A DNA stretch of 64,000 bases, taken from Nannocystis bainbridge. Lineage in GTDB: Bacteria > Myxococcota_A > Polyangia > Nannocystales > Nannocystaceae. The translations under genes and the position numbers were made by a program. The stretch lies in contig NZ_JAQNDL010000001.1 of the NCBI RefSeq assembly GCF_028368995.1, positions 1,216,001 to 1,280,000 of the forward strand. The letters run 5' to 3'. The notes beneath the pieces are model-generated. The model searched no databases and was not told where the DNA came from. It saw only the letters and a list, made by a program, of their open reading frames with translations. Below, piece after piece: positions 1 through 36,620 of this stretch (position 1 is the first letter of the stretch; each line of letters begins with the position of its first letter).

Positions 1-1927
1 TGTTGGTGTCGCGTCGCCCGCTCTCGAGGATCGCACCGAGCCAGTTGGCCTTGCCGTCGATGAGGCCGAAGCGGTAGCCGTCCATCGATTGCTTGCTCAG
101 GTAGTAGATGATCTCGAGCGTGTCGAGGCGGTTGCCCTGGCGATACGCACGACCGTTGCGCTGCTCGAGATCCGAGGGCGTCCACGGCAAGTCGAGGTGG
201 TGAATGATGCAGGTACGGACCTGGAGGTCGACGCCCTCGTAGGCGACCGAGTTGGCGATGACGACGTCGTACTTCGGCGAGAGCTCGGCCGCGACGCCGC
301 CACGGAGCACGCAGCCCTCGTCCGTCTGTGGCGGCTCAGGCGGCAGGCCGTTGAACTCACGGGCGATGCGCACGCGATCGGCCGGCTTGGCGGTCTCAGC
401 GTTGAGCACCGCGATCCGCTCGCGCGGGACCCCCTGCTCGACCAGCACCTCGAGCATCCAGGCGTGGACGGCCGTCGGTTCGCAAAACACGATGTGTCCG
501 CAACTTCGCTGGGCGGCGATCCGCTGGGCGCACGCGACGAGCTTGGGCGCGCGGAAGTCGGGCGCCGGCAGCGTGCGCGTGCGGGTCTTCTTGACCTCGT
601 TGCCGTCCTCGTCCTCGGACGAGAGGATCTCGATCGACTCGCCGCCGGTCAGGGCGTTCTTCCACTTGTAGCCCTCGTCGAGCTGGCTGTGCAGCGCGAC
701 CACGCTGAGGCGCGCGAGCAGGCCGAGGATCTGGCCGCCGGCGAACTCCTTGCGCTGCTTGAGCGCGGCCTCGATCTCGCTGACGAAGCGGTCGTACTTC
801 GCGGCCTGGCGCGCATCCATGTCGACCTCGACGAGCTGAACCCGCGCGGTCGGTAGCTTAAGGCCGACGTCCTTCGCGGTGCGGAACTCGCCGTAGGTGA
901 GGATGATGTTGCGCAGCTCGTCCAGGTTCTTGAAGCCCGTCACCGCCGAGCGCTTGGTTGTCTTGAGGTCGACGCCCAGGACGTCGCGCATCTCGATCTG
1001 CAGGTAGCGATCGATGAACTGCTCGGGGTCCGAAAGGCGCGACGAGAACGCCCTCGGGTCGATCATCTGGATCAGGTTGTAGAACTCGAGCGGCGAGTTC
1101 TTCGCGGGGGTCGCGGTCAGGAGCATGATGCCGGCCCCACCGGTATTGCGGCGGACGACGGCGGCGCGGAAGTCGAGCTGCCATGCGCGTCGGCTGCCCT
1201 CGCCGGAGCCGCCCATGAACTTCGGGACCCCCGCCTCGCGCTCCTCCGGCATGTACAGGTTCTTGAAAGCCGCGGCCTCGTCCACCATGAGCATGTCGAT
1301 CCCGAGGTCGTCCCACGCGACACCGGGGTCGAACTTGTGGCCCTCGGGGAGCTCGAGGTGCTCTTGCACGAAGGCGCGGACGCCGTGTTTGAGGATCGCC
1401 TGCTGGCGCTCGCTGATCGCCACGCCGCGCTCGAGCTTGTCGCGGGCGTTGCGCTGGCGAATGGCGATCTCGCGGCGGATGCCCTCGACCTGGCGAGCGT
1501 ACTCCACCACGGCGTCCTCGTTCATTTTCGTGCGGCTGAGCGCGTCGAAGCTGAGGATGACGACGTCAGCCTGGCCTGCCTGGAATGCCTGCCACTTCTG
1601 CGCCCGATCCTCGGGGCTGTCGGTCTCCGAGGTGAGGACGTCCTTGCGCTTGCCGCGGGTGCCGCGCCTGCGGATGCTCCCGACCACCAGGACCTTGTAG
1701 CCCGGTAGGCAGCAACGGAAATCGTCGTACCACTTCCACACGAGGGAGCTCGGCACGAGCACCACCGGCCGGCGGACCCAGCCCTCCTGACGCGCTCGCG
1801 CGAGGACGGCGATACCCGTATAGGTCTTGCCGACGCCGACGTCGAACGCGAGCATGCCCCGCCGCAGCGCGAGGAGACGCCGGGCTCCGGCTACCTGATG
1901 TGGCTTCAGGGTCGGGCCATTGTCGCC
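1..1927 (-). CDS. SNF2/SF2 helicase half of a DarB-like methylase-helicase (frameshifted continuation of 1906..4296; runs off the left edge)
   Basis: Manual translation of the -1 frame gives Q-motif LKPHQ, Walker A FDVGVGKT, Ia VLVPSSL, Walker B VDEAAAFKN, motif III LLTATPAKN, V EGVDLQ and VI EQRNGRAYRQG. It is absent from the ORF track because no stop occurs before base 1. Confidence 0.9.
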
Positions 1928-4296
1928 CAGCGGGCGATGGAGAGCGGATCGCCGCTGAACTGCGGGGTGATGATGCCCTTGAATTCGCGGTTGTACGCGT
2001 CGGCGATCCGCTGGCGTCGCTCCTCGTGGTCGCGCAGCCAGTTGTAGAACGATGAGGCGTACTCCTGAGCCTTCAGCGCGCGGAGCTCGGCCTTCTTGCG
2101 CCGCGCGTCCGCGTCGTCGTCGTCGCCGTCGTCGTCGGGGTCGAAGAGGAACTTGTCGTGGTTGATCCACCCGAGGATCCACACGGTCTCCGCGGTGAGG
2201 CCGGCCAGGTCGTCGGTGGTGTTGTAGGCATGGCCCTGCACGCGGACCAGGCCGGCGACCCGCTCGAGCGCGACCGGACCGAGTTCGCGGTTGTACGTGG
2301 CGCTGAGCCATGCGGAGACGAGGTCGAGCGGGACCCACCGCTGCGACGGCGTGATGTCGCTGATGTCCTCGAAGACAGCCGGACCGATCGCCTCGAGCAG
2401 TCGGCGAGCCTGAAGCGCGGCCTGGGGATCGTCGGTCTTCGCGCGAGCGCGGTCGTACTTCGGCCACAGCTCGCCGGTGACGTAGACGTCGAGCGGGACG
2501 ACCTCGTTGTCGTGGTCGAGGTTCCAGTCCGCGGCGAGCAGGCGCGCGAGGATGGCGTCGCGGTCCTGGGCGCCGCCGACCTGGCGGTGGAACTCTACGA
2601 GCGCGGGGAGGAGCAGATGACCGCGCTGGCGGAACAGGAACTCGGCCTGAGCGAGGACGTCGTCCGGCAAGCCGGTGTAGCGCCGCGTCACCTTCGGCGG
2701 CTCCGCGATCGCCGGGGCGAGCTCGCCGGTCGGCGTGAAGGCGTTGAGGAACTGCTGCGCGCCGGTGCTGCGCTCGGCGTGGCGCCGCAGCGGCAGGTAG
2801 CGCCACGGCCCGCCCGCTTGCTGGATCTCGGCGCGCTTCGTGAAGTCGACGAGCGCCGCGCGGAGCTCGACCCACATGCCCTCGGCCCTGTCGGCGTCGT
2901 TGGCCGCGACCGCGGCGAGGTAGCGATCGATGCGCAGGCCGAGGTCCACGGCCGCGCGTAGGGGCTCGGCCAGGTCGCTGGTCTGCTCCTCCGTCGCACG
3001 GATGCCTGACTCGTAGTGGATCGGCTCCTCCGCCGCGATCGCTCCCAAGGCACAGGAGGCGCACATGGGCCGCTCCTCGAACGCGGGGATGCTCTTGAAC
3101 TCGCCAACGACCTTGTATCGCCACGGTCGCTTGGAGCTGACCGCCTCGTCGCCGAGCTCGGGGCCCTCGAGCTCGCCGGCGGGCTTGCCGAGGAGGTGCG
3201 TCGGGAAGTGCTCGTAGTACTGGCCGTCGAGGATGAATCGATCGTCCTCGTCGATCTCGGTGAGCTGGCCGCCGCGGGCGCGGAAGAACAGCACGTCGAC
3301 GACGACGGATGCGCCGGGGAAGACCTCGCGATTGTTTGGCGTGTGGCTTGGCAGGCGGAACGCGGCGGCAAGGTGGTGGCGCGCGAGGAGCTTGGCGCGG
3401 AGGTCGCGGTTGCGCTCGCCGGTGAGAAAGCCGCCCGGGACGATGAAGACGCCCAGGCCGCCGGGCACGAGCATGTCGAGCGCGCGGCGCATAAAGTAGG
3501 CGTAGGCGACGCGCTCGCGGTAGAGCGGGCTGGGATCGTCGAGGGCGAACGCGCCGCGCTCACCATAGGGCGGGTTGCTCAGGATGACGTGGAACCGCCC
3601 GGCGTACTCGCTGCCGTGCTCGCGGACGAACCGCTCGAATGGCATGTGGTGGTGCCGGACGTCGGGGCGCAGCGCGGTGAGCAGGCGCGACGTGGTCTTC
3701 GACAGCTCGACCGTCACCCACTCGATGCCCCGCACAGGGCCAGCGGGGTCGATACAATTCGGCCGGCCCATGGCGCGGAGGAAGCGGCCGATGCCGGCCG
3801 AGGGCTCGAGGATCCGCACGACGCCGTCGTGACCGGCGAGCTCGGGCAGCAGCGGGCAGACGTGCTCCGCGATCGCGTCGGCGATGGCGAGCGGGGTGAA
3901 ATAGGCGTGGATCAGCTCGAAGTCGTCGGGCTCCAGGCCCGCGGGGAGCTGGTCCTTCACTTCCTCGAGCGAGAGGCCGCCCCAGGACGAGTACGCGAGG
4001 AGCTGGCGCCGCTCACCGGGCGTGAGGTCCTCGGGCTTCTTGCTGGCGATGATGCGGAGCGCGGCGAGGTTGGCCTTGGTGCGCTGGCTCTTCGTCCACA
4101 GCTCGGGCGGATCGTCGGCGTCTTGGGTCTGCTCGGCCGTGCGAGCGCGGCGAACGGCGAGCGCGGCGTCCAGCATCTCGATGAGACCGGCGCGCTCCTC
4201 GGCGAGGAATTGATCGAAGACCCGCTGAGGGATCCGCGAGGCCATGTTCGCGCGCCACGCTGGCTCGATGAGCGCGAAGAGTTGCGCGCCGTTCAT
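1906..4296 (-). CDS. N6-adenine DNA methyltransferase half of a DarB-like methylase-helicase
   Basis: N-terminal ANLAALR...LLAYSSWGGL, YFTP, motif I ILEPSAGIGRF and motif IV ILSNPPYG. The ORF stops just after a GGG run where the helicase frame takes over. Confidence 0.9.
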   Translation of the reverse strand: MNGAQLFALIEPAWRANMASRIPQRVFDQFLAEERAGLIEMLDAALAVRRARTAEQTQDADDPPELWTKSQRTKANLAALRIIASKKPEDLTPGERRQLLAYSSWGGLSLEEVKDQLPAGLEPDDFELIHAYFTPLAIADAIAEHVCPLLPELAGHDGVVRILEPSAGIGRFLRAMGRPNCIDPAGPVRGIEWVTVELSKTTSRLLTALRPDVRHHHMPFERFVREHGSEYAGRFHVILSNPPYGERGAFALDDPSPLYRERVAYAYFMRRALDMLVPGGLGVFIVPGGFLTGERNRDLRAKLLARHHLAAAFRLPSHTPNNREVFPGASVVVDVLFFRARGGQLTEIDEDDRFILDGQYYEHFPTHLLGKPAGELEGPELGDEAVSSKRPWRYKVVGEFKSIPAFEERPMCASCALGAIAAEEPIHYESGIRATEEQTSDLAEPLRAAVDLGLRIDRYLAAVAANDADRAEGMWVELRAALVDFTKRAEIQQAGGPWRYLPLRRHAERSTGAQQFLNAFTPTGELAPAIAEPPKVTRRYTGLPDDVLAQAEFLFRQRGHLLLPALVEFHRQVGGAQDRDAILARLLAADWNLDHDNEVVPLDVYVTGELWPKYDRARAKTDDPQAALQARRLLEAIGPAVFEDISDITPSQRWVPLDLVSAWLSATYNRELGPVALERVAGLVRVQGHAYNTTDDLAGLTAETVWILGWINHDKFLFDPDDDGDDDDADARRKKAELRALKAQEYASSFYNWLRDHEERRQRIADAYNREFKGIITPQFSGDPLSIARWATMARP

Positions 4297-4847
4297 GCCT
4301 CGACCTCGCGGCCCACGGTGAGCTCGAGCGCCTCATACTCGCCCGGCTCCAGGGTCGTCGAACCTGCCGTCTCGACGGATTTGGGTTTGCCTGAACCGCT
4401 GCAACCGCAGCCGCCGACCTTGACGCCGCACGTGCCCCCGCACGCTGTGGCCATGCTCGCTAGCGTCGCGTTGAGGCTGGCAACGACCTCGCCGAGTGTC
4501 CGGCGGCCGAACAGGCGGACGGCCTTGTCCTCGCCGCCTCGAGCGAGGAAAGGGCCGTGATTGAGTCGGTCGAGCGACAGCTCACCGATGGCGGTGATGT
4601 CCTGGCGCATCAGGTCGAGCCAGTGGAGCTGGGCGTCGTCGAAGTCGCGCCCGGCGAGCGCCTGGCGGTCGAGCCACCCGTGGAACGCCCTCGCTGCTCG
4701 GCGCTCACGGACGGTCCTGGAGGCGTGGTCGAACGCTTCGCGCAGCGCCGCGCCGTCCTCCGAGAGGAACTGCGCGACGGCCGTCCGCGGGACCTGCGGT
4801 GAGAGGCTGGCCTGCCATCGTGCGAGGGTGTCGTCGAAGTCGACCAT
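4293..4847 (-). CDS. hypothetical protein; N-terminal motif shared with the DarB-like protein; Cys/Gly motif near the C-terminus
   Basis: 184-aa ORF with an ATGA overlap onto the downstream gene; motif CGGTCGVKVGGCGCSG. Confidence 0.8.
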   Translation of the reverse strand: MVDFDDTLARWQASLSPQVPRTAVAQFLSEDGAALREAFDHASRTVRERRAARAFHGWLDRQALAGRDFDDAQLHWLDLMRQDITAIGELSLDRLNHGPFLARGGEDKAVRLFGRRTLGEVVASLNATLASMATACGGTCGVKVGGCGCSGSGKPKSVETAGSTTLEPGEYEALELTVGREVEA

Positions 4848-4850
4848 GGT

Positions 4851-5678
4851 TCATTCCGCCTGCTTCATGGCCTCGACCATGGCGTCTTTGAACGAGTCGC
4901 GCAGCTCCGTGCGCAGCTCGGGGGTCAGCTCGGAGGGTCCTTCGGCCGGTTTCGTCTCGGCCGGTTTCGTTTCGGTCTCCCCTGCATCATTGGCCTGCTT
5001 CTTCGCCCTCGGCTTGGGGGGCGATCGGCGCGGAGGGTCCTTCTGCGCTGTCGTCTCGGTCGCTCCATTCTCCGTGTCGGCTCGCTTCGTCCTCGGCTTG
5101 CGGGGCGCCTGGGGCGGAGCCTCCTGCGCCGGAGCAGGACAGGCATTGTCGATCATCTCTTGCGTGAGCTTCAGTTCGGGGCGCGCAGGCAGTCCCTCAT
5201 CATGAAGGGCCTGGGCGGCTTTTTTCGCGTCGCCGAGCTTGGCGTGGCACGTGATGTGCTTCATCAAGCCGCGGCCCCAGTAAACGTAGATCGCCCAGCC
5301 GCCGCTGCTCGTCTTCAGCACGTGCAGCTCGGCGCCGCGCGACTTCGCGGCGAAGCCGTCATACCCCGCATCCACGATCGGCGCCCATTCGAGAGACGTG
5401 CCCTTCTTCGCCGGCTCCGGAGGGTGCGCGGGCGCAGGGGTTCCGGCTCTCCCCTTGCGCTCCTGGGCCGGCTTCTGGGCGGCGACCTTCGCTTTCGCGT
5501 TGGCCTCCTTCGCTTCGGTCGCCTGCTTGGGCTTGTCGTCCACCGTGTCCCCCTCGTCCTTGTCCCTCTGCTTGGAGGAGACGGAAAGGTCGCCGTTCGA
5601 CTTCTGGACGATGACACGCTCTTTGCGCTCGCCATTGTAGAGGGTCAATCGGATCGTTTCGACAGTCCACTCACTCAT
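4851..5678 (-). CDS. hypothetical Lys/Pro/Ala-rich protein with a central small beta domain
   Basis: 275-aa ORF coupled to its neighbours (8-nt overlap, 3-nt gap); basic low-complexity flanks. Confidence 0.8.
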   Translation of the reverse strand: MSEWTVETIRLTLYNGERKERVIVQKSNGDLSVSSKQRDKDEGDTVDDKPKQATEAKEANAKAKVAAQKPAQERKGRAGTPAPAHPPEPAKKGTSLEWAPIVDAGYDGFAAKSRGAELHVLKTSSGGWAIYVYWGRGLMKHITCHAKLGDAKKAAQALHDEGLPARPELKLTQEMIDNACPAPAQEAPPQAPRKPRTKRADTENGATETTAQKDPPRRSPPKPRAKKQANDAGETETKPAETKPAEGPSELTPELRTELRDSFKDAMVEAMKQAE

Positions 5679-9012: not shown

Positions 9013-9854
9013 GCGACCTCCTTCGGCAGCGTGCCGACGAGGCCGGCGAGCACCGCGGGCACGCCGGGCCAGGCGGAGGCGTCGAGCTTGGGCGGGATCG
9101 TCGTCGCGTCCGTCAGATCGACGTTCAGCGCGATCGCGTCGGTGAGGAAGCGGGCCCGGACGTCGTGGTAATCCGAGCTGCCTCGTTCGTCCTTGAGCAG
9201 AGACGGGCTCGCCCAGCCGACCTTGATGTCGGCGAGATCGTCGACTCTGTAGTTCGCCAGGATTCGCTGCATGTACACAGCCGCCCCGAAGGCCGCGGCG
9301 CGCGGCTGAAAGACCAGTTCGGGCGGCGAGTTCAGCAGCGGCGCCCTTTTGCCGACCTCCGGGACGCCCGTCCACAGGAAGTACGGAGCGAGCAGTCCGA
9401 AAAGGCCGCCGCTCCCAAACTCCGCCGCCTGATCGGCATAGCGCAGCGGCGGGTTGCGGTCCTTGTTGTTCTTGTACGCCCGGCGCGAGCTGTCGCGCTC
9501 GTCTGCTTCGCCCGTCGCGTTGCCGTTGTGGGCGGCAGTGACGAAACGCGATTCGCGGTAAGAGATCACCGCGAACACGCGTGCCGACCCGGGGATCCGC
9601 GCGACCTCCTCCATCAGCATGAACAAGGGGCGAAGGTCCGTCGGCGTCTCGCCCCAATTGGTCGAGAGGTCGCCCTTCACATCGGTGGCCCTCGGGAGCG
9701 GCGCCAGGTCGACCACCGGCGAATCGGATGCCGGTGGCGGCGTCGAGGTCGGCGGAGCTGCGGCGCTGGCTCTGCGGCTCCACAGGAGCGAGCCGCCGAT
9801 CACACCGCCGACGCCGGCCAGCGTGCCGATCATAGTCCAGAGGTTGCGGCTCAT
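9009..9854 (-). CDS. signal-anchored lytic transglycosylase/lysozyme-fold-like protein
   Basis: N-terminal TM (LWTMIGTLAGVGGVIGGSLLW), Pro linker, SLT-like motif I AVISYRESRF (candidate catalytic Glu), motif II-like GGLFGLL, and FQPRAAAFGAAVYM resembling the 'P..N...G..Y' helix; ATGA overlap. Confidence 0.65.
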   Translation of the reverse strand: MSRNLWTMIGTLAGVGGVIGGSLLWSRRASAAAPPTSTPPPASDSPVVDLAPLPRATDVKGDLSTNWGETPTDLRPLFMLMEEVARIPGSARVFAVISYRESRFVTAAHNGNATGEADERDSSRRAYKNNKDRNPPLRYADQAAEFGSGGLFGLLAPYFLWTGVPEVGKRAPLLNSPPELVFQPRAAAFGAAVYMQRILANYRVDDLADIKVGWASPSLLKDERGSSDYHDVRARFLTDAIALNVDLTDATTIPPKLDASAWPGVPAVLAGLVGTLPKEVA

Positions 9855-10564
9855 CGCGCGGCCTCCTGCGCCCGCAGGCGCTCGCTCAGCCGGTCGAGCT
9901 CCCGGGCTCGGCTCAGGCTCACCGCCGAGTACACGGCGCTCCCGGTGATGACGAGGGTCGTGCCGGCGACCAGGGCGACTCGGCCGGTCGTCCACGAGCT
10001 CGGGCTCGGCGGCTCGGGCTGTGTCGACACGCCACCGCCGTTGGTCGGGGTGACGTCGCCGCTGGCCTGGGTCGAGCTGGTTGCGTGGGCCGTCGGCTGC
10101 GCGCCAGGTATGACCCAGCCGACCGGGTGCCACCATTTCTTGATGGTGGCGATGTCCCATAATTCGAGCGCCCGGTAGAGCGGCTCCCACGCCGCTCCCT
10201 CGGAGGAGTTGCGATCGGGCAGCCGATTCGCGGGATCGGCATCGGGAGAGAGAGCCTGTCCCAGGAGCAGGGTGAGCGCCGCGGGCGGCGTGATGGTCCC
10301 GAAGGTCGGCAAGCCGACAACCACGCCACCGCCGCCGCGGGGCGTGGTCGTCCGGACCGCCGACCACGGCCAGTCCGCGGCTGGCGCCAGCTTGACACGC
10401 GCCATGAAACCGGCGCGCGCCGGCTCGCTGGCCTCGTCGTAGGCAGCGCGGAGCAGCTGCGCGACGTCCTCCTCACGCAGGAGCCGCTCGGGACCCTTCA
10501 GCGTGCGCTCGGCCGCCGACAGCTCCATGAGGCGGGCGACGCGGTGTCGATCGATACTGGCCAT
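9851..10564 (-). CDS. hypothetical protein with Thr/Pro linker and C-terminal TM helix
   Basis: AAGGAG RBS, start MASIDRHR; TM VALVAGTTLVITGSAVYSAVSL. Confidence 0.8.
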   Translation of the reverse strand: MASIDRHRVARLMELSAAERTLKGPERLLREEDVAQLLRAAYDEASEPARAGFMARVKLAPAADWPWSAVRTTTPRGGGGVVVGLPTFGTITPPAALTLLLGQALSPDADPANRLPDRNSSEGAAWEPLYRALELWDIATIKKWWHPVGWVIPGAQPTAHATSSTQASGDVTPTNGGGVSTQPEPPSPSSWTTGRVALVAGTTLVITGSAVYSAVSLSRARELDRLSERLRAQEAAR

Positions 10565-10614: not shown

Positions 10615-11340
10615 TCAGTCGGCGACCCAGGTCCACTGCTCGCCGTTGTTCATGATGATCCCGCTGCGCTGAATGGCTTGCGCGATCGCACCGCCGGCGA
10701 ACAGGTCGCCCGCCGCGGCGTGGAGCGTGGGCATGCCCGGCCCCTTGCGCGTGACGGTGAGGACCGCATCGAGCGGCACGATCGAGCGCGTCGGGAGGGT
10801 GATGGTGCCGACGTTGACGCTGTCGTAGATGACGTGGAGCGTTCCGAGCCACCCCGGCAGCGCCGCGCTCGCGGTGAACCGCGCGACACGGACGCCGGTG
10901 TCGCGTGCCCTGAAGACGGCCTCGGACCACTCGCGGAGGCGCGAGCCGAGCTCGTTGACGCCGCCGATGCTCTCGATCAGCAGCTCGAGCTTGACGAGCG
11001 CCTGTGGCGGCGTGAACACGCGGAGTTCGTCGCTCGGACGGACGAGGGTGAGCCGCGTGTTATCAGCGCTGGGGGTGTACTGCGCACGGATCTGCGTCGG
11101 CGCGCCGGTCCGCACCTCGAGGAACGTCTGCGGGTCGAGTGGCTGCGTGGTCAGGATGCACGCGTGCAGCATGTAGGGGTCGCCCGCCGGGACCTGTCCC
11201 CAGAGACCGGCGGGCAGCACGCCGGCCGGCGCCGTCAGCTCAGCCTCGTTCCAGCCCTCCACGAGCTTGAACACGGGCTTCTCCGTGACCGGGGTCTGGC
11301 CGTCGAAGCCGCCGCGGGTGATGAGCTTGATCTTGTTCAT
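10615..11340 (-). CDS. beta-rich hypothetical protein (candidate structural/spike protein)
   Basis: Start MNKIKLITRGG 8 nt after the upstream stop; many alternating hydrophobic strands (LHVIYD, TITLP, LTVTRKG, WTWV). Confidence 0.8.
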   Translation of the reverse strand: MNKIKLITRGGFDGQTPVTEKPVFKLVEGWNEAELTAPAGVLPAGLWGQVPAGDPYMLHACILTTQPLDPQTFLEVRTGAPTQIRAQYTPSADNTRLTLVRPSDELRVFTPPQALVKLELLIESIGGVNELGSRLREWSEAVFRARDTGVRVARFTASAALPGWLGTLHVIYDSVNVGTITLPTRSIVPLDAVLTVTRKGPGMPTLHAAAGDLFAGGAIAQAIQRSGIIMNNGEQWTWVAD

Positions 11341-11348
11341 CGTTGGCC

Positions 11349-12032
11349 CTACTTCTCGCTCCCGCCCTTGCACCCGCGCTGGCACGAGCGGCCCGCCGCG
11401 CAGGAGGAGCAGCACTTGACCGCGTTGGCGTGCTCGACGTGGAGGCGGATGTTCTCGATCTGGTTCGCGTTGCCCAGGTGGCTGATGCGTACGCGCAGCC
11501 GGTTGTTGCCGCCGATGCAGCAGTGTTCGCCCATCGCCAGCGGGATCGGCAGCTTGCCCTCGCCGATCACGGTGTTGTCGTTGTTGTAGATCTCGCTGCC
11601 GTACTGAATCGCGTCGAGCGGCTCGGTGTCCACGAACCACTCGATCCGGATGTCGTCGTGGTTGTTCGCGTTGTTGGCCAAGCGGTAACGAAGCACGTAG
11701 CAGGCCGTGGGCCATGGCGGGTAGGCGGCCTGGGACAGAACGACCGACGAGCCTGGCGCCAGCGGGATCTGGCCCTCCACTACCTGATCGATGTTGGTGC
11801 GGCCGCCGCGGTAGAACCGAGCCACCGTGATCGGCGCGTACAGCAAGTTCTCGCAGCCGATCTTCGGCACGCCCATGCCGCACGCGGGCAGGTCGCCCTC
11901 GGTTGTCGGCAACGCGCCAACGCCGCCCATGCGCGCGAGATTCTGCGCGATCTCGACGCTGCCCATGCGCACGAGGTTCTCGGCGATCTCGCGGCCGAGC
12001 AGCTTCACAGTCTCTTGTTTCTCGATATCCAT
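11349..12032 (-). CDS. beta-rich hypothetical protein (candidate single jelly-roll capsid-like protein) with a Cys-rich tail
   Basis: Strong AGGAG RBS; strand-like segments YVLRYRL, IRIEWFVD, LRVRISH, IRLHVEH; C-terminal CCSSCAAGRSCQRGC. The ORF is solid; the fold is inferred. Confidence 0.75.
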   Translation of the reverse strand: MDIEKQETVKLLGREIAENLVRMGSVEIAQNLARMGGVGALPTTEGDLPACGMGVPKIGCENLLYAPITVARFYRGGRTNIDQVVEGQIPLAPGSSVVLSQAAYPPWPTACYVLRYRLANNANNHDDIRIEWFVDTEPLDAIQYGSEIYNNDNTVIGEGKLPIPLAMGEHCCIGGNNRLRVRISHLGNANQIENIRLHVEHANAVKCCSSCAAGRSCQRGCKGGSEK

Positions 12033-15704: not shown

Positions 15705-16188
15705 CCTGGCCTCACCGGGGACGTGCTGTGTTGCATGCGGAATATCTGGTGAATGCGTGAACAAAGCCGCTCACACGCCGCAGGATGACTCTGGCGTCCA
15801 GTCTGGGACACCCTCGATATCATCGGGATTCCTCCAGACAATCTAAAAGACTCGAGCAGTCGCTCGCCAAGTTCGCACCGCCTCCGGGCTCGACGCCGGG
15901 GGCGGGGCCGACGACGAAACCGAAGCTCGGGGACCGGGCGGCGTCGGTGGGAATCCCTGCGCCGCCGGATCTGCTGGTCAGCGAGGCACGCGCGCGTGTG
16001 GGGGCGCCATCTCGAGCCCGTGCCGCCACCACGGGTGGAACCATGGGTCCGCTCGAATGGTCGAGCTTGCTGGCTTTCACGATGGAGGTGCATGCTCGAC
16101 GGCTGACCGTCACAACCAAGATCGTCACGCAGCCGCCACCCGCCACGACGGTTGTCAAACCGCGGCGGCGCGGCGAGGATGCAGGCTG

Positions 16189-33586: not shown

Positions 33587-34768
33587 GTGGCGATCCCCGT
33601 CGAGACGCTGCCGGGCCAGGTCGCCCAGGTCGACTTCGGCGACGTGGGCAAGCTCTACGACCCCAGGGCCGGCGTGCTGCGTCGGGCTTACGTGTTCGTG
33701 ATGGTGCTCGGCTACTCGCGCCACATGTTCGCGCGGATCGTGTTCGACCAGAGCACCGAGACCTGGATCCGGCTGCACATCGACGCCTTCGAATCCTTCG
33801 GCGGCGTGCCGGCGGTCATCGTCCCGGACAACCTCAAGGCGGCGGTGATCCGCGCCGCATTTGCCATCGACGACAAGTCCGTGCTCAACCGCAGCTACCG
33901 CGAGCTGGCGCGGCACTACGGCTGCAAGATCGACCCGGCGCCGCCGTACACGCCCGAACACAAGGGCAAGGTCGAGTCGGCGGTGAAGTACGTCAAGCAC
34001 AACTTCATGCGGCCGCGCGACGAGCTCGACGTCAGCGTGCTACGCCCACAGCTCGACGCGTGGGTCGAGGAAGTCGCCGGTCAGCGTGTACACGGCACGA
34101 CCCGCAAGGCACCCCGGCACCGCTTCGAGACGGTCGAGCGGGCGGCCCTGCTGCCGCTGCCACAATCACCGCATGAGATGGCCATCTGGCACGCCGCGAA
34201 GGTCCACACCGACAGCCACGTCGTCTTCGATAAAGCGATGTACTCGGTGCCCTGGCGCTTCGTCGGCAAGCAAGTCACGGTTCGCGCCTGCCGGGACTCG
34301 ATCGCGCTGTTCTTCGAGGACATTCGAATCGCCACGCACGAGCGCGCAGCCGCGGGCAAGCGACGGACCCACGAGGCCCACCTGCCGGAGGGCCGCCGCG
34401 AGCTGCGTCATCGTAGCCAGAGCAACTGGGAGGAGCGCGCCGACGCGCTCGGCGACGAGGTGGGTGCATACATCCGCGAGGTCTTCGCCAGCGACGACGT
34501 GCTCCTGCAGCTGCGCACGGTGCAAGCGATCGTCACGTACCTCGAGGGCCATCCTGCCCACCGCGCCCGGGCGGCCTGCGCCCGCGCCCGCTACTTCGCC
34601 AGCTACAGCTACGGCGCCATCAAGAACATCCTGCGCAAGGGCCTCGATCTGCAGTCCTTGCCCGGCGTGGTCCTGCCCGAACGCGGGAGGCTGGAGCGTC
34701 CACGATTGGCCCGCGACATCAAGGAGCTGCTCGCGGCTCCCCTGGAAGACACCGATGCACCCCACTGA
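33587..34768 (+). pseudogene. istA: IS21 transposase IstA, 5'-truncated
   Basis: ETLPGQVAQVDFG, VPDNLKAAV, HKGKVESAVKYV; N-terminal HTH region absent. Confidence 0.9.
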
Positions 34769-35780: not shown

Positions 35781-36620
35781 TCACTCGATGACGCGATCCG
35801 CCTCCGCTCGTGCGAGCGCGCGCTTGCGGAGCCCCGCGTCGCTTTCGACGCGTGCGAGCAACGCATCCACCACGCGCAGAGGTGCCGCCGCCGTCGCCCA
35901 CAGTGCGAGGCAACCCGCTTCCGGATCGAAGCGAAATTCGGCCTCCAGCTCAGGCGCCTCCAGCGCCATCACACCGCGCGCGATGCCTGCCCACGACTCC
36001 CCTCCCCCTTGATAGCCCTTCTTCTGGAGCATCGGCGTGAGGGCGCTGCCGACGTAATCGTAGCGATACTGGTTCGGGCCGACCTCTACCAGCTGACCTG
36101 CGGCGAGCTTCTTTGCCTTGGGCGCCTTGGCTTTTTTCGAGGGCTTCGAAGGCTTCGCGGGCGATGGCGCGTGTCCGAAGAGCGCTCCGTTTTCGGGGGC
36201 ATCTGCGAACGCGTCGAGCATTTCGTTCAGCAGGTTCGCTTGCTCGTCTGAAACCTTCCCGCAGGTCTGGAGCGCCTCGAAGGCGTCTTCGATCGTACAA
36301 TACTCCTCCATGGTCGCGACACGCCCGCGCGCGAAGGTCTCGGCGACGATGTCGCGTCGTCGCTGGAGATCGATGTTGGCCTCGCCGACCTTCCGCCAGA
36401 ACGCCTCGACCTCGGGTCCCGCGCCTTCGTTCCATTCCACCAGAAAATCCGTTTCGAGCGAACGGACCGCAGCCGCGGTCGGGTGCTCGCCAGCGAGGGC
36501 CCGAAGCTCGGCGTAGAACGCCAGCGCCAGCTCGTCGGCGCTCTCGCGACGAATGGCCTCGGCGATGTCGAGCAGCGCGAACAGTCGGTCCTTGTGCGGG
36601 TTCGCCCCTGTCTTGGCCAT
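35781..36620 (-). CDS. two-domain immunity-like protein with a C-terminal Imm51-like domain
   Basis: C-terminal KGYQGGGESWAGIA...FRFDPEAG matches the Imm51 pattern (G..GNGY.W...FDPEAG); helical N-terminal domain with WNE...FW. Confidence 0.65.
   Translation of the reverse strand: MAKTGANPHKDRLFALLDIAEAIRRESADELALAFYAELRALAGEHPTAAAVRSLETDFLVEWNEGAGPEVEAFWRKVGEANIDLQRRRDIVAETFARGRVATMEEYCTIEDAFEALQTCGKVSDEQANLLNEMLDAFADAPENGALFGHAPSPAKPSKPSKKAKAPKAKKLAAGQLVEVGPNQYRYDYVGSALTPMLQKKGYQGGGESWAGIARGVMALEAPELEAEFRFDPEAGCLALWATAAAPLRVVDALLARVESDAGLRKRALARAEADRVIE

Follow-up and report, generated by a model that had tools for sequence, protein, structure and literature searches.

Polymorphic toxins and secretion effectors carry a constant N-terminal trafficking handle joined to exchangeable C-terminal payloads, and the capsid-targeting sequence of phage T4 is a segment of about 10 residues that attaches to the scaffolding core and is cut off by the prohead protease. 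The T4 internal proteins are diverse defence proteins described as having the capsid-targeting sequence as their sole common part (PMC3012670). In phage P1, the N-terminus of the anti-restriction protein DarB directs entry into the capsid, as the earlier note on this DNA had stated; in the published account the first 30 residues suffice to direct a reporter there, and its authors suspected a targeting signal common to the Dar proteins and report that an N-terminal consensus was not found (PMC9024508). The architecture to which such giants conform, an LPD36 domain followed by an adenine methylase and a SWI2/SNF2 helicase, has been defined for polyvalent proteins (Iyer et al. 2017, PMC5512222); the description of LPD36 given there presents it as the N-terminal domain and mentions no further module before it. 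Here we describe two adjacent genes of an integrated mobile element in a 64,000-nucleotide stretch of the Nannocystis bainbridge genome (contig NZ_JAQNDL010000001.1, positions 1,216,001 to 1,280,000; the window), one for a DarB-like giant and one for a 184-aa protein, whose products begin with the same module, probably a common docking or loading handle.

The small gene (4293–4847, minus strand) and the methylase open reading frame lie where the earlier note had placed them (Table 1); the coordinates it gave for the shared motif, 4162–4817, reach from where the motif of the giant ends to the W in that of the small protein. The ATG of the giant overlaps the TGA of the small gene (ATGA at 4293–4296), and the two genes are, judging from this overlap, translationally coupled. 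On the other side, only 3 bases separate the stop of a 275-aa gene from the start of the small gene; the 275-aa product has no family match in Pfam or NCBIfam, and homologues with 32–33% identity occupy the same place in both paralogous elements of this genome.

Table 1. Features of the small gene, the giant and the adjoining gene in the window.
Feature	Coordinates	Strand	Basis or remark
Small protein, N-terminal module (residues 1–45)	4713..4847	-	BLASTP; hhalign, residues 3–50; AF2; homologues P0002–P0005
Small protein, EcoEI_R_C-like (HsdR C-terminal) helical domain (residues ~46–135)	4443..4712	-	Pfam PF08463
Small protein, Cys/Gly-rich stretch (CGGTCGVKVGGCGC) and variable tail (residues 136–184), with stop codon	4293..4442	-	
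Giant, N-terminal module (residues 1–50)	4147..4296	-	BLASTP; alignment with 23 giants of other genomes
Giant, LPD36-type helical domain with G-x-G-G motif (YSSWGGLS) (residues ~66–130)	3907..4101	-	Alignment; description in PMC5512222
Giant, N6-adenine DNA methyltransferase domain	3280..3903	-	Pfam N6_Mtase and Eco57I; tblastn to P1 darB
Giant, first reading frame (796 aa)	1906..4296	-	Terminated by a one-base frameshift in the G-run near 1925
Giant, SNF2-type helicase part, next frame	2..1948	-	Pfam SNF2-rel_dom, Helicase_C and ResIII; PHROGs
275-aa gene, directly upstream of the small gene in a tight operon	4851..5678	-	

The giant has the same LPD36–adenine methylase–SWI2/SNF2 triad as the polyvalent proteins of Iyer et al. 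2017 (PMC5512222). A helical LPD36 domain with a G-x-G-[GAS] motif stands directly before the methylase, and Y102, S103, W105, G106, and G107 of the motif YSSWGGLS are invariant across 24 aligned giants; a local profile of the LPD36 region matches P1 DarB residues 47–84 (E = 8.5e-8, Z = 1). Pfam places N6_Mtase at residues 132–339 and Eco57I at residues 230–311, tblastn aligns residues 129–347 with P1 darB (30.6% identity, E = 3e-8), and PHROGs assigns the protein to the DarB-like phrog_10089 (E = 1.8e-21 and 1.6e-45) and its helicase part to phrog_11801 (E = 1.8e-100), so that Pfam, PHROGs, and tblastn together give the order methylase, then SWI2/SNF2 helicase. The helicase frame leaves the window and continues to L003:7365; in full, the giant would come to about 2300 aa.

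The earlier note had reported 12 identities over 32 residues, aligned without gaps, between the N-termini of the two proteins. That count is correct, and BLASTP lengthens the match to 15 of 41 (residues 11–51 of the 184-aa protein with 14–54 of the giant, E = 7e-5 in a single comparison), every remaining segment having E > 3. The Smith–Waterman score of 72 was reached by 1 of 2000 shuffles when the full proteins were compared and by none of 10,000 when the first 60 residues of each were compared (shuffle mean 23.7, sd 4.6). Profile–profile comparison of the 184-aa family with the giants (hhalign, E = 1.3e-4) aligned residues 3–50 with 6–53 only, and the rest of the two proteins is thus unrelated, as had been claimed; against a third family, of 223 aa, the alignment was limited to the first ~47 residues (E = 2.4e-4). 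A profile built from giants only, which gives 54.7 bits on the module of the window giant, aligned residues 4–35 in five of six members of the small family, all in one register (per-sequence E = 5.6e-7 to 1.6e-4, Z = 1). Given a genome of 69% G+C and a pairwise identity of just 37% over 41 residues, a chance resemblance between two alanine/arginine-rich N-termini might be suspected; it is refuted by the composition-keeping shuffles, by the agreement of independent family profiles on the register, and by the 99 further proteins with the module at the N-terminus described below, which leave it a practically negligible probability. What the two N-termini share is a homologous and portable module of about 45–50 residues, made up of a helix, a loop, and one or two more helices; in the AF2 model of the small protein, it comprises a helix at residues 4–14, a loop, and the beginning of a long helix (pLDDT 84–91).

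A search of 1.84 billion proteins with the module profile returned 102 matches, each a representative cluster at 50% identity; three were false matches of the repeat type and 99 were true, which supplies further tagged proteins of the kind that the earlier note had proposed to look for by such a search. The module begins at or before residue 5 in 84 of these 99, residue 10 in 92, and residue 20 in 97. It heads the DarB-like giants at 27 of the 29 loci examined across the phylum, and it is present in 58 of the 60 members of the 223-aa family. Homologues of each of the two window proteins conserve the motif at their N-termini, the reverse of what the earlier note had named as refuting its proposal. 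The module-headed DarB-like giants form a clade in myxobacterial integrated elements, with the module just before the LPD36–methylase–SNF2 core. When the whole genome was scanned in six frames (120,587 open frames), only six carried the module, making up three pairs of small protein and giant, and the next-best match had E = 0.1. A weaker echo of the motif that the earlier note had placed near the N-terminus of 9851–10564 is not supported: that frame is not among the six, and the module profile scores its protein at about 0 bits, away from the position named. In searches of genome contigs, the single protein P0022 found two loci and the window small protein none, and tblastn of the small protein and the first 140 residues of the giant against phages and plasmids gave zero matches.

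The domains that follow the module vary, and include the LPD36–methylase–helicase core, EcoEI_R_C, a new domain of ~165 aa, a LigD phosphoesterase, and domains of unknown type. Among the 99 matches, 26 carry the new domain only, 13 LPD36 (the giants), four both, and seven EcoEI_R_C; 23 others are longer than 100 aa with none of the named domains and 26 are too short to class. P0120 consists of the module and LigD_N (E = 4.3e-38). When two such proteins are fused, one module copy is retained, at the extreme N-terminus: P0062 and P0120 each have a single module there, and their downstream 223-type domain is without a copy of its own. The identified cargoes are all DNA-acting or related to restriction-modification, and many copies of the module contain an R-x-R or R-R-N-R stretch, both of which would suit a module that itself binds nucleic acid or regulates DNA-acting enzymes, for example by holding them on incoming DNA or on a DNA end. 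We consider this very improbable, as the arginines are not kept in the two copies of the window (SEDGA and AEERA), its copies differ in net charge between −4 and +6 (median +2), and fold matches to DNA-binding motifs were not above background.

The small protein itself is a stand-alone EcoEI_R_C protein. Its match to PF08463 (E = 4.6e-11, 43.5 bits against a cut-off of 24) covers residues 31–129, and residues ~46–135 correspond to the C-terminal half of the family, above the gathering threshold, which P0072, P0103, P0159, and P0161 also pass. EcoEI_R_C matches begin at residue 48–54 in the genomes of relatives, where in six related genomes they lie partly inside frames of about 1000 codons, and compact structural alignments of the small-protein model begin near residue 45. 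EcoEI_R_C is absent from Pfam searches with the first 130 or 59 residues of the giant at E up to 10. Whereas the HsdR C-terminal domain stands at the end of a type I nuclease-helicase, the small protein has neither nuclease nor helicase, and has the module before its domain and a Cys-rich stretch after it; this Cys/Gly-rich stretch is present in all 11 family members examined and is modelled with a pLDDT of ~32. Searches for structural relatives gave nothing below E = 0.4 by sequence against solved structures, nothing at E = 0.001 or better with the model in the Foldseek PDB search, and a best Z of 6.2 in the VIA wide search, which is background for helical models. In one metagenome contig, the letters at 4302–4401 are swapped for 248 different ones; no RNA data set is listed among the sequencing runs with this DNA.

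In the 223-aa family, the module forms the first three helices of a single compact domain (AlphaFold, pLDDT 95.4, pTM 0.86); it is thus not a free peptide there and may simply be part of the fold, for which Foldseek (PDB), VIA wide (best Z 5.2), and a viral library gave nothing clear. No Pfam family or solved fold matched the module, the ~165-aa domain, or the Cys/Gly-rich stretch in the searches made. The small protein of the paralogous elements is a full paralogue of the first ~215 residues of the giant (~45–48% identity); because it duplicates this whole N-terminal domain, common descent explains the likeness there without a shared signal. One locus, L028, has a recent, near-identical duplicate of ~190 bases from the 5′ end of a giant, after which the sequence looks non-coding. 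These three observations are consistent with the module being an evolutionary residue, in which a partial tandem duplication at the 5′ end of the giant gave rise to the small genes, domain swaps came later, and the N-terminus was retained as the start of an ordinary folded domain and not as a common signal. Such an explanation appears rather improbable: the module has been kept while at least three unrelated types of domain have taken the place of everything downstream, it is still present in giants that lost the 223-type domain, it is conserved over 99 representative clusters at 50% identity, and the known domain of the 184-aa protein begins only past it. The 184-aa protein and the 213-aa small protein of a paralogous element gave nothing below E = 0.17 in BLASTP.

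A module-headed small protein is encoded just upstream of the giant in all three syntenic elements of this genome and at both Nannocystis MAG loci. This arrangement, together with the translational coupling, may reflect docking or oligomerisation, with the two N-termini, as paralogous hairpins, pairing in a helical bundle; the methylase-helicase would thereby acquire interchangeable small subunits (EcoEI_R_C, the LigD phosphoesterase, or the 223-aa domain), a giant lacking a partner would associate with itself, and a third component or particle would not be required. Hydrophobic residues predominate at the module positions that different families conserve (L, W/V, L, P, F, L), the range of its net charge suits a protein–protein surface, and the accessory domains, like the giant, act on DNA. 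Direct pairing of the two N-termini is as simple an explanation as a common handle, and yet we regard it as somewhat unlikely, since it leaves unexplained both the extreme N-terminal position (92 of 99 within 10 residues) and the single copy in fusions, and since the pair is without element-specific co-variation; module identity within one element is not above that between elements.

The module and the P1 DarB signal occupy the same slot, the N-terminus of a giant LPD36-methylase-SNF2 anti-restriction protein, before LPD36, which starts near residue 47 in P1 DarB (~45 residues precede it) and near residue 66 in the window giant. There is no detectable sequence similarity between them: against the first 400 residues of P1 DarB, the module profile has no match and the giant profile scores −1.3 bits. 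This combination makes a loading or docking handle the best reading, and we tentatively favour, at a little short of an even chance, the view that one partner of the element recognises the module as a common handle. That partner would recognise it on several proteins, so that proteins which protect or repair DNA would be recruited together and delivered along with the element DNA, in the manner of the capsid-targeting sequences of the T4 internal proteins and P1 DarB. As with the T4 sequence, a conserved N-terminal segment is common to otherwise unrelated proteins of one element (PMC3012670 for T4). The module, at 45–50 residues, is folded and 4–5 times the length of the T4 signal, with no scaffold identified and no cleavage site evident, and it exceeds the P1 DarB signal, given as <30 residues, whereas the Dar N-termini of P1 are described as lacking a consensus and the window operon has a second protein with the same module (PMC9024508). 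Several observations count against the common handle, among them the compact domain of the 223-aa family, the common descent of the small protein and the giant in the paralogous elements, and the lack of any excess of module identity within an element. As assembled, the window giant is not one continuous polypeptide, as its frame breaks at the G-run near 1925, where the contigs of close relatives have one extra base in three of four sequencing runs; the two giant paralogues of this genome are intact (2800 and 2822 codons). In addition, the 1.5 kb upstream of 22 giants that belong to other classes of the phylum contain no second gene with the module.

The element is integrated, about 26 kb long, and has phage-like traits (a tyrosine integrase, a ClpP/SDH-type protease, and two cell-wall hydrolases); the protease is weakly similar to head-maturation proteases (PHROGs, 1e-5; NCBIfam, 23.6 bits against a cut-off of 120). 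Pfam, PHROGs, and NCBIfam found no capsid, portal, terminase, packaging ATPase, or type IV secretion genes in it, and P1 differs in being a tailed phage whose capsid genes are known. The "particle or transfer machine" of the earlier note is for this reason hypothetical, and its proposal of a packaging or export tag stands in part: a portable N-terminal unit on unrelated proteins, in the slot held by the P1 signal, agrees with it, whereas the dissimilarity to the P1 sequence and the undetected capsid, portal, terminase, and type IV secretion genes do not. Polymorphic toxin and effector handles pair with recognisable secretion systems, none of which is evident in the myxobacterial element, and their payloads are toxins, whereas those that follow the module are DNA-modifying or repair domains.

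It is conceivable, if unlikely, that the ~26-kb elements encode an unrecognised myxobacterial transfer vehicle, with the module as its loading signal and the tagged proteins as a co-delivered "entry kit", in which the methylase-helicase, an HsdR docking-domain decoy against type I restriction, and the LigD phosphoesterase would protect or repair incoming DNA. The decoy itself is speculative: PMC2602864 describes binding of the methylase by the HsdR C-terminal domain as "purported", and the small protein might act as a free methylase-docking domain that blocks assembly of the host type I restriction complex.

The literature searched on EcoEI_R_C, and on DarB with myxobacteria, contains no description of the module. 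If it is a common handle, it would be a natural, sequence-recognisable one, common to a DarB-like giant, its operon partner, and at least four other payload types; as a reporter fusion it could serve to find the machine used by unannotated myxobacterial elements, and as a search key it could recover the proteins that these elements carry along. Most genes of the element have no family in Pfam, PHROGs, or NCBIfam, and there are no tRNA genes at its ends. Two of its products gave Atlas hits that serve as leads only, a 241-aa protein to an unnamed Myxococcota cluster and a 540-aa protein to a GPO scaffold (0.77); the latter, absent from the other copies of the element, is the only protein with a Walker A motif.

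The 184-aa small protein and the giant DarB-like methylase-helicase encoded next to it share an N-terminal segment of about 45–50 residues, which proved to be a homologous, portable and strictly N-terminal module carried by the giant, its operon partner and several other payload types. The two N-termini can be aligned as an earlier note had proposed, with identities at 12 of 32 positions; BLASTP matched residues 11–51 of the small protein to residues 14–54 of the giant (15/41 identities, E 7e-5) and found no similarity between the two beyond this match. The Smith-Waterman score (72) was equalled by 1 of 2000 shuffles of the small protein against the full giant, and by none of 10,000 when the first 60 residues of each protein were compared. 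At the level of the sequence the observation is thus confirmed, except for a "weaker echo" placed by the same note in the protein encoded at 9851–10564; the module profile scores about zero on that protein, and at other places. Across the entire genome (11 Mb, 69% G+C), only six frames bearing the module were found by six-frame scanning.

The small protein is rare (five relatives among 5.8 billion proteins), and its N-terminal motif is nearly unchanged in four of these relatives, the fifth being more diverged. Of 401 genomes sampled across the phylum, 38, including the one studied here, contain relatives of the first 130 residues of the giant. A profile detected the module in 27 of 29 fetched giant loci, two loci (L038 and L041) lacking it; in L029 the module is cut by the contig end, and in L039 its reading frame is shifted. 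The module has the approximate consensus a-a-q-L-L-D-r-I-x-x-x-V-R-x-x-L-P-p-g-V-x-p-x-Y-L-D-x-F-L-x-R-x-R-p-x-L. When a profile was built from the giants only, it matched residues 4–35 of five of the six small-family members, always in the same register (E 5.6e-7 to 1.6e-4, as values for a single comparison), and in a profile-profile comparison of the 184-aa family with the giants only residues 3–50 and 6–53 aligned (E 1.3e-4). The motif is therefore kept at the N-termini of homologues, and its absence there, named in the earlier note as grounds for refutation, was not what we found.

Portability is indicated by the domains that follow the module. Between the 184-aa family and the 223-aa family (small proteins of paralogous elements and their relatives), hhalign aligned only residues 4–47 with 7–50 (E 2.4e-4). 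With an E cut-off of 0.001, a module profile of 11 sequences had 102 matches among 1.84 billion representative proteins; three were counted as false, being repeat proteins matched in many stretches, and 99 were kept. The module starts at or before residue 5 in 84 of these, residue 10 in 92 and residue 20 in 97. As assigned by local profiles, it is followed by the 223-type domain (about 165 aa) in 26 proteins, by LPD36 in 13 (giants), by both in 4, by EcoEI_R_C in 7, and by none of these in 23 proteins of at least 100 residues, while 26 were too short to classify; many of the 99 are encoded on short contigs, and there may be fragments or frame chimeras among them. Two module-bearing proteins combine payloads: P0120 carries the module and a LigD 3′-phosphoesterase (Pfam, E 4.3e-38), then a 223-type domain without a module of its own, and P0062 carries the module, EcoEI_R_C, a Cys-rich stretch and a 223-type domain, with no second module. 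Each protein thus has one module, in front, irrespective of what comes after.

The known domain of the 184-aa protein, EcoEI_R_C, begins after the module, as indicated by the Pfam domain start (residues 31–54 across small-family members), the start of related-genome matches (residues 48–54), compact structural alignments beginning near residue 45 (HRDC domains, homeodomains and Spo0A, with Z about 5, which is background level) and the end of the hhalign match at residues 47–50. AlphaFold2, given a six-sequence alignment, predicted a confident all-helical model for residues 1–135, with helices at 4–14 and 21–64, five further helices and a disordered tail (136–184). The 213-aa protein of the paralogous elements was modelled with very high confidence (pLDDT 95.4, pTM 0.86) as a single compact alpha/beta body, of which the module makes up the first three helices. 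Neither model had a match above background among solved and viral predicted structures.

In the window, three consecutive, nearly gapless minus-strand genes encode a 275-aa protein, the small protein and the methylase part of the giant, and an ATGA at 4293–4296 joins the TGA of the 184-aa gene to the ATG of the methylase frame. This frame carries Eco57I/N6_Mtase domains and is followed, past a one-base frame change, by an SNF2 helicase frame that runs out of the window; joined, the two would give about 2300 residues. Both match giant-methyltransferase and "DarB-like antirestriction" families in PHROGs, and the methylase part matches P1 darB (30.6% identity, E 3e-8). The break lies at a G-run near 1925 on the minus strand (CGCTGGGCGAC on the coding strand), where the first frame ends ...IARWATMARP-stop and the next goes on ...LGDNGPTLKPHQ. 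Because both paralogous giants have a single unbroken frame here (...IVRWGSHAPKLKPHQ), and contigs 90–99% alike carry one additional base at the G-run in three of four metagenome runs examined (two studies), the break in the window reflects either a genuine frameshift or an assembly error in the homopolymer.

Operon genes, element copies and recognisable element genes
Feature	Location	Strand	Remark
275-aa gene	window 4851–5678	minus
184-aa gene (small protein)	window 4293–4847	minus
Methylase frame of giant	window 1906–4296	minus	796 codons
Element copy 1	contig 1, about 1,206–1,232 kb		window 1 to about 15,700, plus locus L003
Element copy	contig 2, about 804–831 kb
Element copy	contig 2, about 1,907–1,930 kb
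Possible further element	contig 3, about 1,544–1,552 kb
Tyrosine integrase
ClpP/SDH-type protease			weak similarity to head-maturation proteases
Peptidoglycan-binding hydrolase
Lytic transglycosylase-like protein			by eye from E-S motif; no family match
Several membrane proteins

The operon belongs to one of three syntenic integrated elements of about 25–27 kb, with protein identities of 32 to 81% between copies, each including an integrase, a ClpP/SDH-type protease, cell-wall hydrolases and a giant; no tRNA was found at the element ends, and most element genes had no family match. In none of the three copies was a capsid, portal, terminase, replication or secretion gene recognised. Chromosomal genes start near window position 16,000; among them are a Mu-type transposase (33587–34768; rve, Mu-transpos_C_2) and an Imm51 immunity-domain protein (35781–36620), which are unrelated to the module. 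In both contig-2 copies, a small gene lies immediately upstream of a giant that is intact (2800 or 2822 codons), and the module starts both proteins. The 213-aa contig-2 small protein lacks EcoEI_R_C and is a paralogue of the entire first ~215 residues of the giant. This full-length paralogy favours a further reading, in which the N-termini are alike simply by descent, through partial duplications of the 5′ end of the giant; the reading is weakened by the fact that the module has been kept in front of unrelated domains. In the second contig-2 element (L043 3467–3682; contig 2, 1,915,967–1,916,182), an in-frame deletion has cut the small protein to 71 residues, retaining the module and the last few residues, and an identical sequence is a public-library cluster representative (P0068). 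The 213-aa type has 60 relatives of about 220–227 residues, 58 with the module and one named as from a Myxococcales MAG, and on two Nannocystis MAG contigs a small gene again precedes a giant, with the same neighbouring genes. Upstream of 22 giants belonging to other classes within the phylum, no second module-bearing gene was found within 1.5 kb, except at L028 (G219:C38:5489-8866), where about 190 bases of the module-encoding 5′ end are present in near-identical copies (3–200 and 1477–1670); the duplicate, 1.4 kb upstream of the original, precedes sequence of non-coding appearance and may have been left behind by an insertion.

Iyer and colleagues described a triad of LPD36, an adenine methylase and SWI2/SNF2, in which LPD36 is made of four helices and carries a G-x-G-[GAS] motif (PMC5512222). 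The LPD36 counterpart in the window's giant is the YSSWGGLS region (residues about 66–130), and it is preceded by the module, which the passages on the triad do not mention. In P1 DarB, a local profile placed LPD36 at residues 47–84, leaving about 45 residues ahead of it; these contain an experimentally defined capsid-targeting signal, for which 30 residues suffice and nine do not, and the authors reported no consensus among Dar protein N-termini by BLAST (PMC9024508). Module profiles did not match P1 DarB, and in all 55 phage records with a match to the methylase, the match starts at query residue 54 or later. T4 internal proteins are diverse defence proteins with only a capsid-targeting sequence in common (PMC3012670); for HsdR, the C-terminal domain has been "purported" to be the methylase-binding part (PMC2602864). 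We found no published description of the module, although N-terminal domains of these proteins may be listed in supplementary files of PMC5512222; it is an undescribed member of a familiar class, in which a constant N-terminal handle precedes anti-defence payloads that vary.

Given that P1 DarB has a parallel architecture, that T4 offers a precedent and that fusions carry one copy at the front, we infer that the module may be a handle recognised by a common putative partner, by which DNA-protecting proteins would be recruited and delivered together. The packaging or export tag proposed in the earlier note is supported in part: a portable, strictly N-terminal module with P1-like placement fits it, whereas the missing match to the P1 signal and the lack of detectable capsid or type IV secretion genes do not. 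The main weakness of the handle reading is that no receiving machine is recognised in the element; three profile libraries detected no capsid, portal, terminase, packaging ATPase or type IV secretion gene in it. In the simplest rival reading, the two modules would bind one another and thereby dock exchangeable accessory subunits on the giant; small gene and giant are strictly adjacent and translationally coupled, which fits this, and so does a module whose conserved positions are mostly hydrophobic and whose charge varies.

Beyond the module, the small protein has a Cys/Gly-rich stretch (C-G-G-T-C-G-V-K-x-G-x-C-G-C; residues 136–156, window 4380–4442) that follows EcoEI_R_C in all 11 family members examined and is disordered in the AlphaFold model; it could serve as a metal site or linker. 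A similar stretch lies ahead of the module in a giant fragment (P0132). The tails beyond the stretch differ widely in length and sequence. Window 4302–4401, in the tail of the small protein, is replaced by 248 other letters in one metagenome contig (run X4), and the homologues P0002–P0004 and P0072 have longer, unrelated tails. The two best-conserved element proteins, encoded on the minus strand at 11349–12032 and 10615–11340 (75% and 81% identical between copies), are one of 227 aa that ends in a Cys-rich tail containing CC pairs and one of 241 aa that looks beta-rich by eye; no family was found for either, the 241-aa protein falls in an unnamed Myxococcota cluster of the Atlas, and both are candidate structural proteins.
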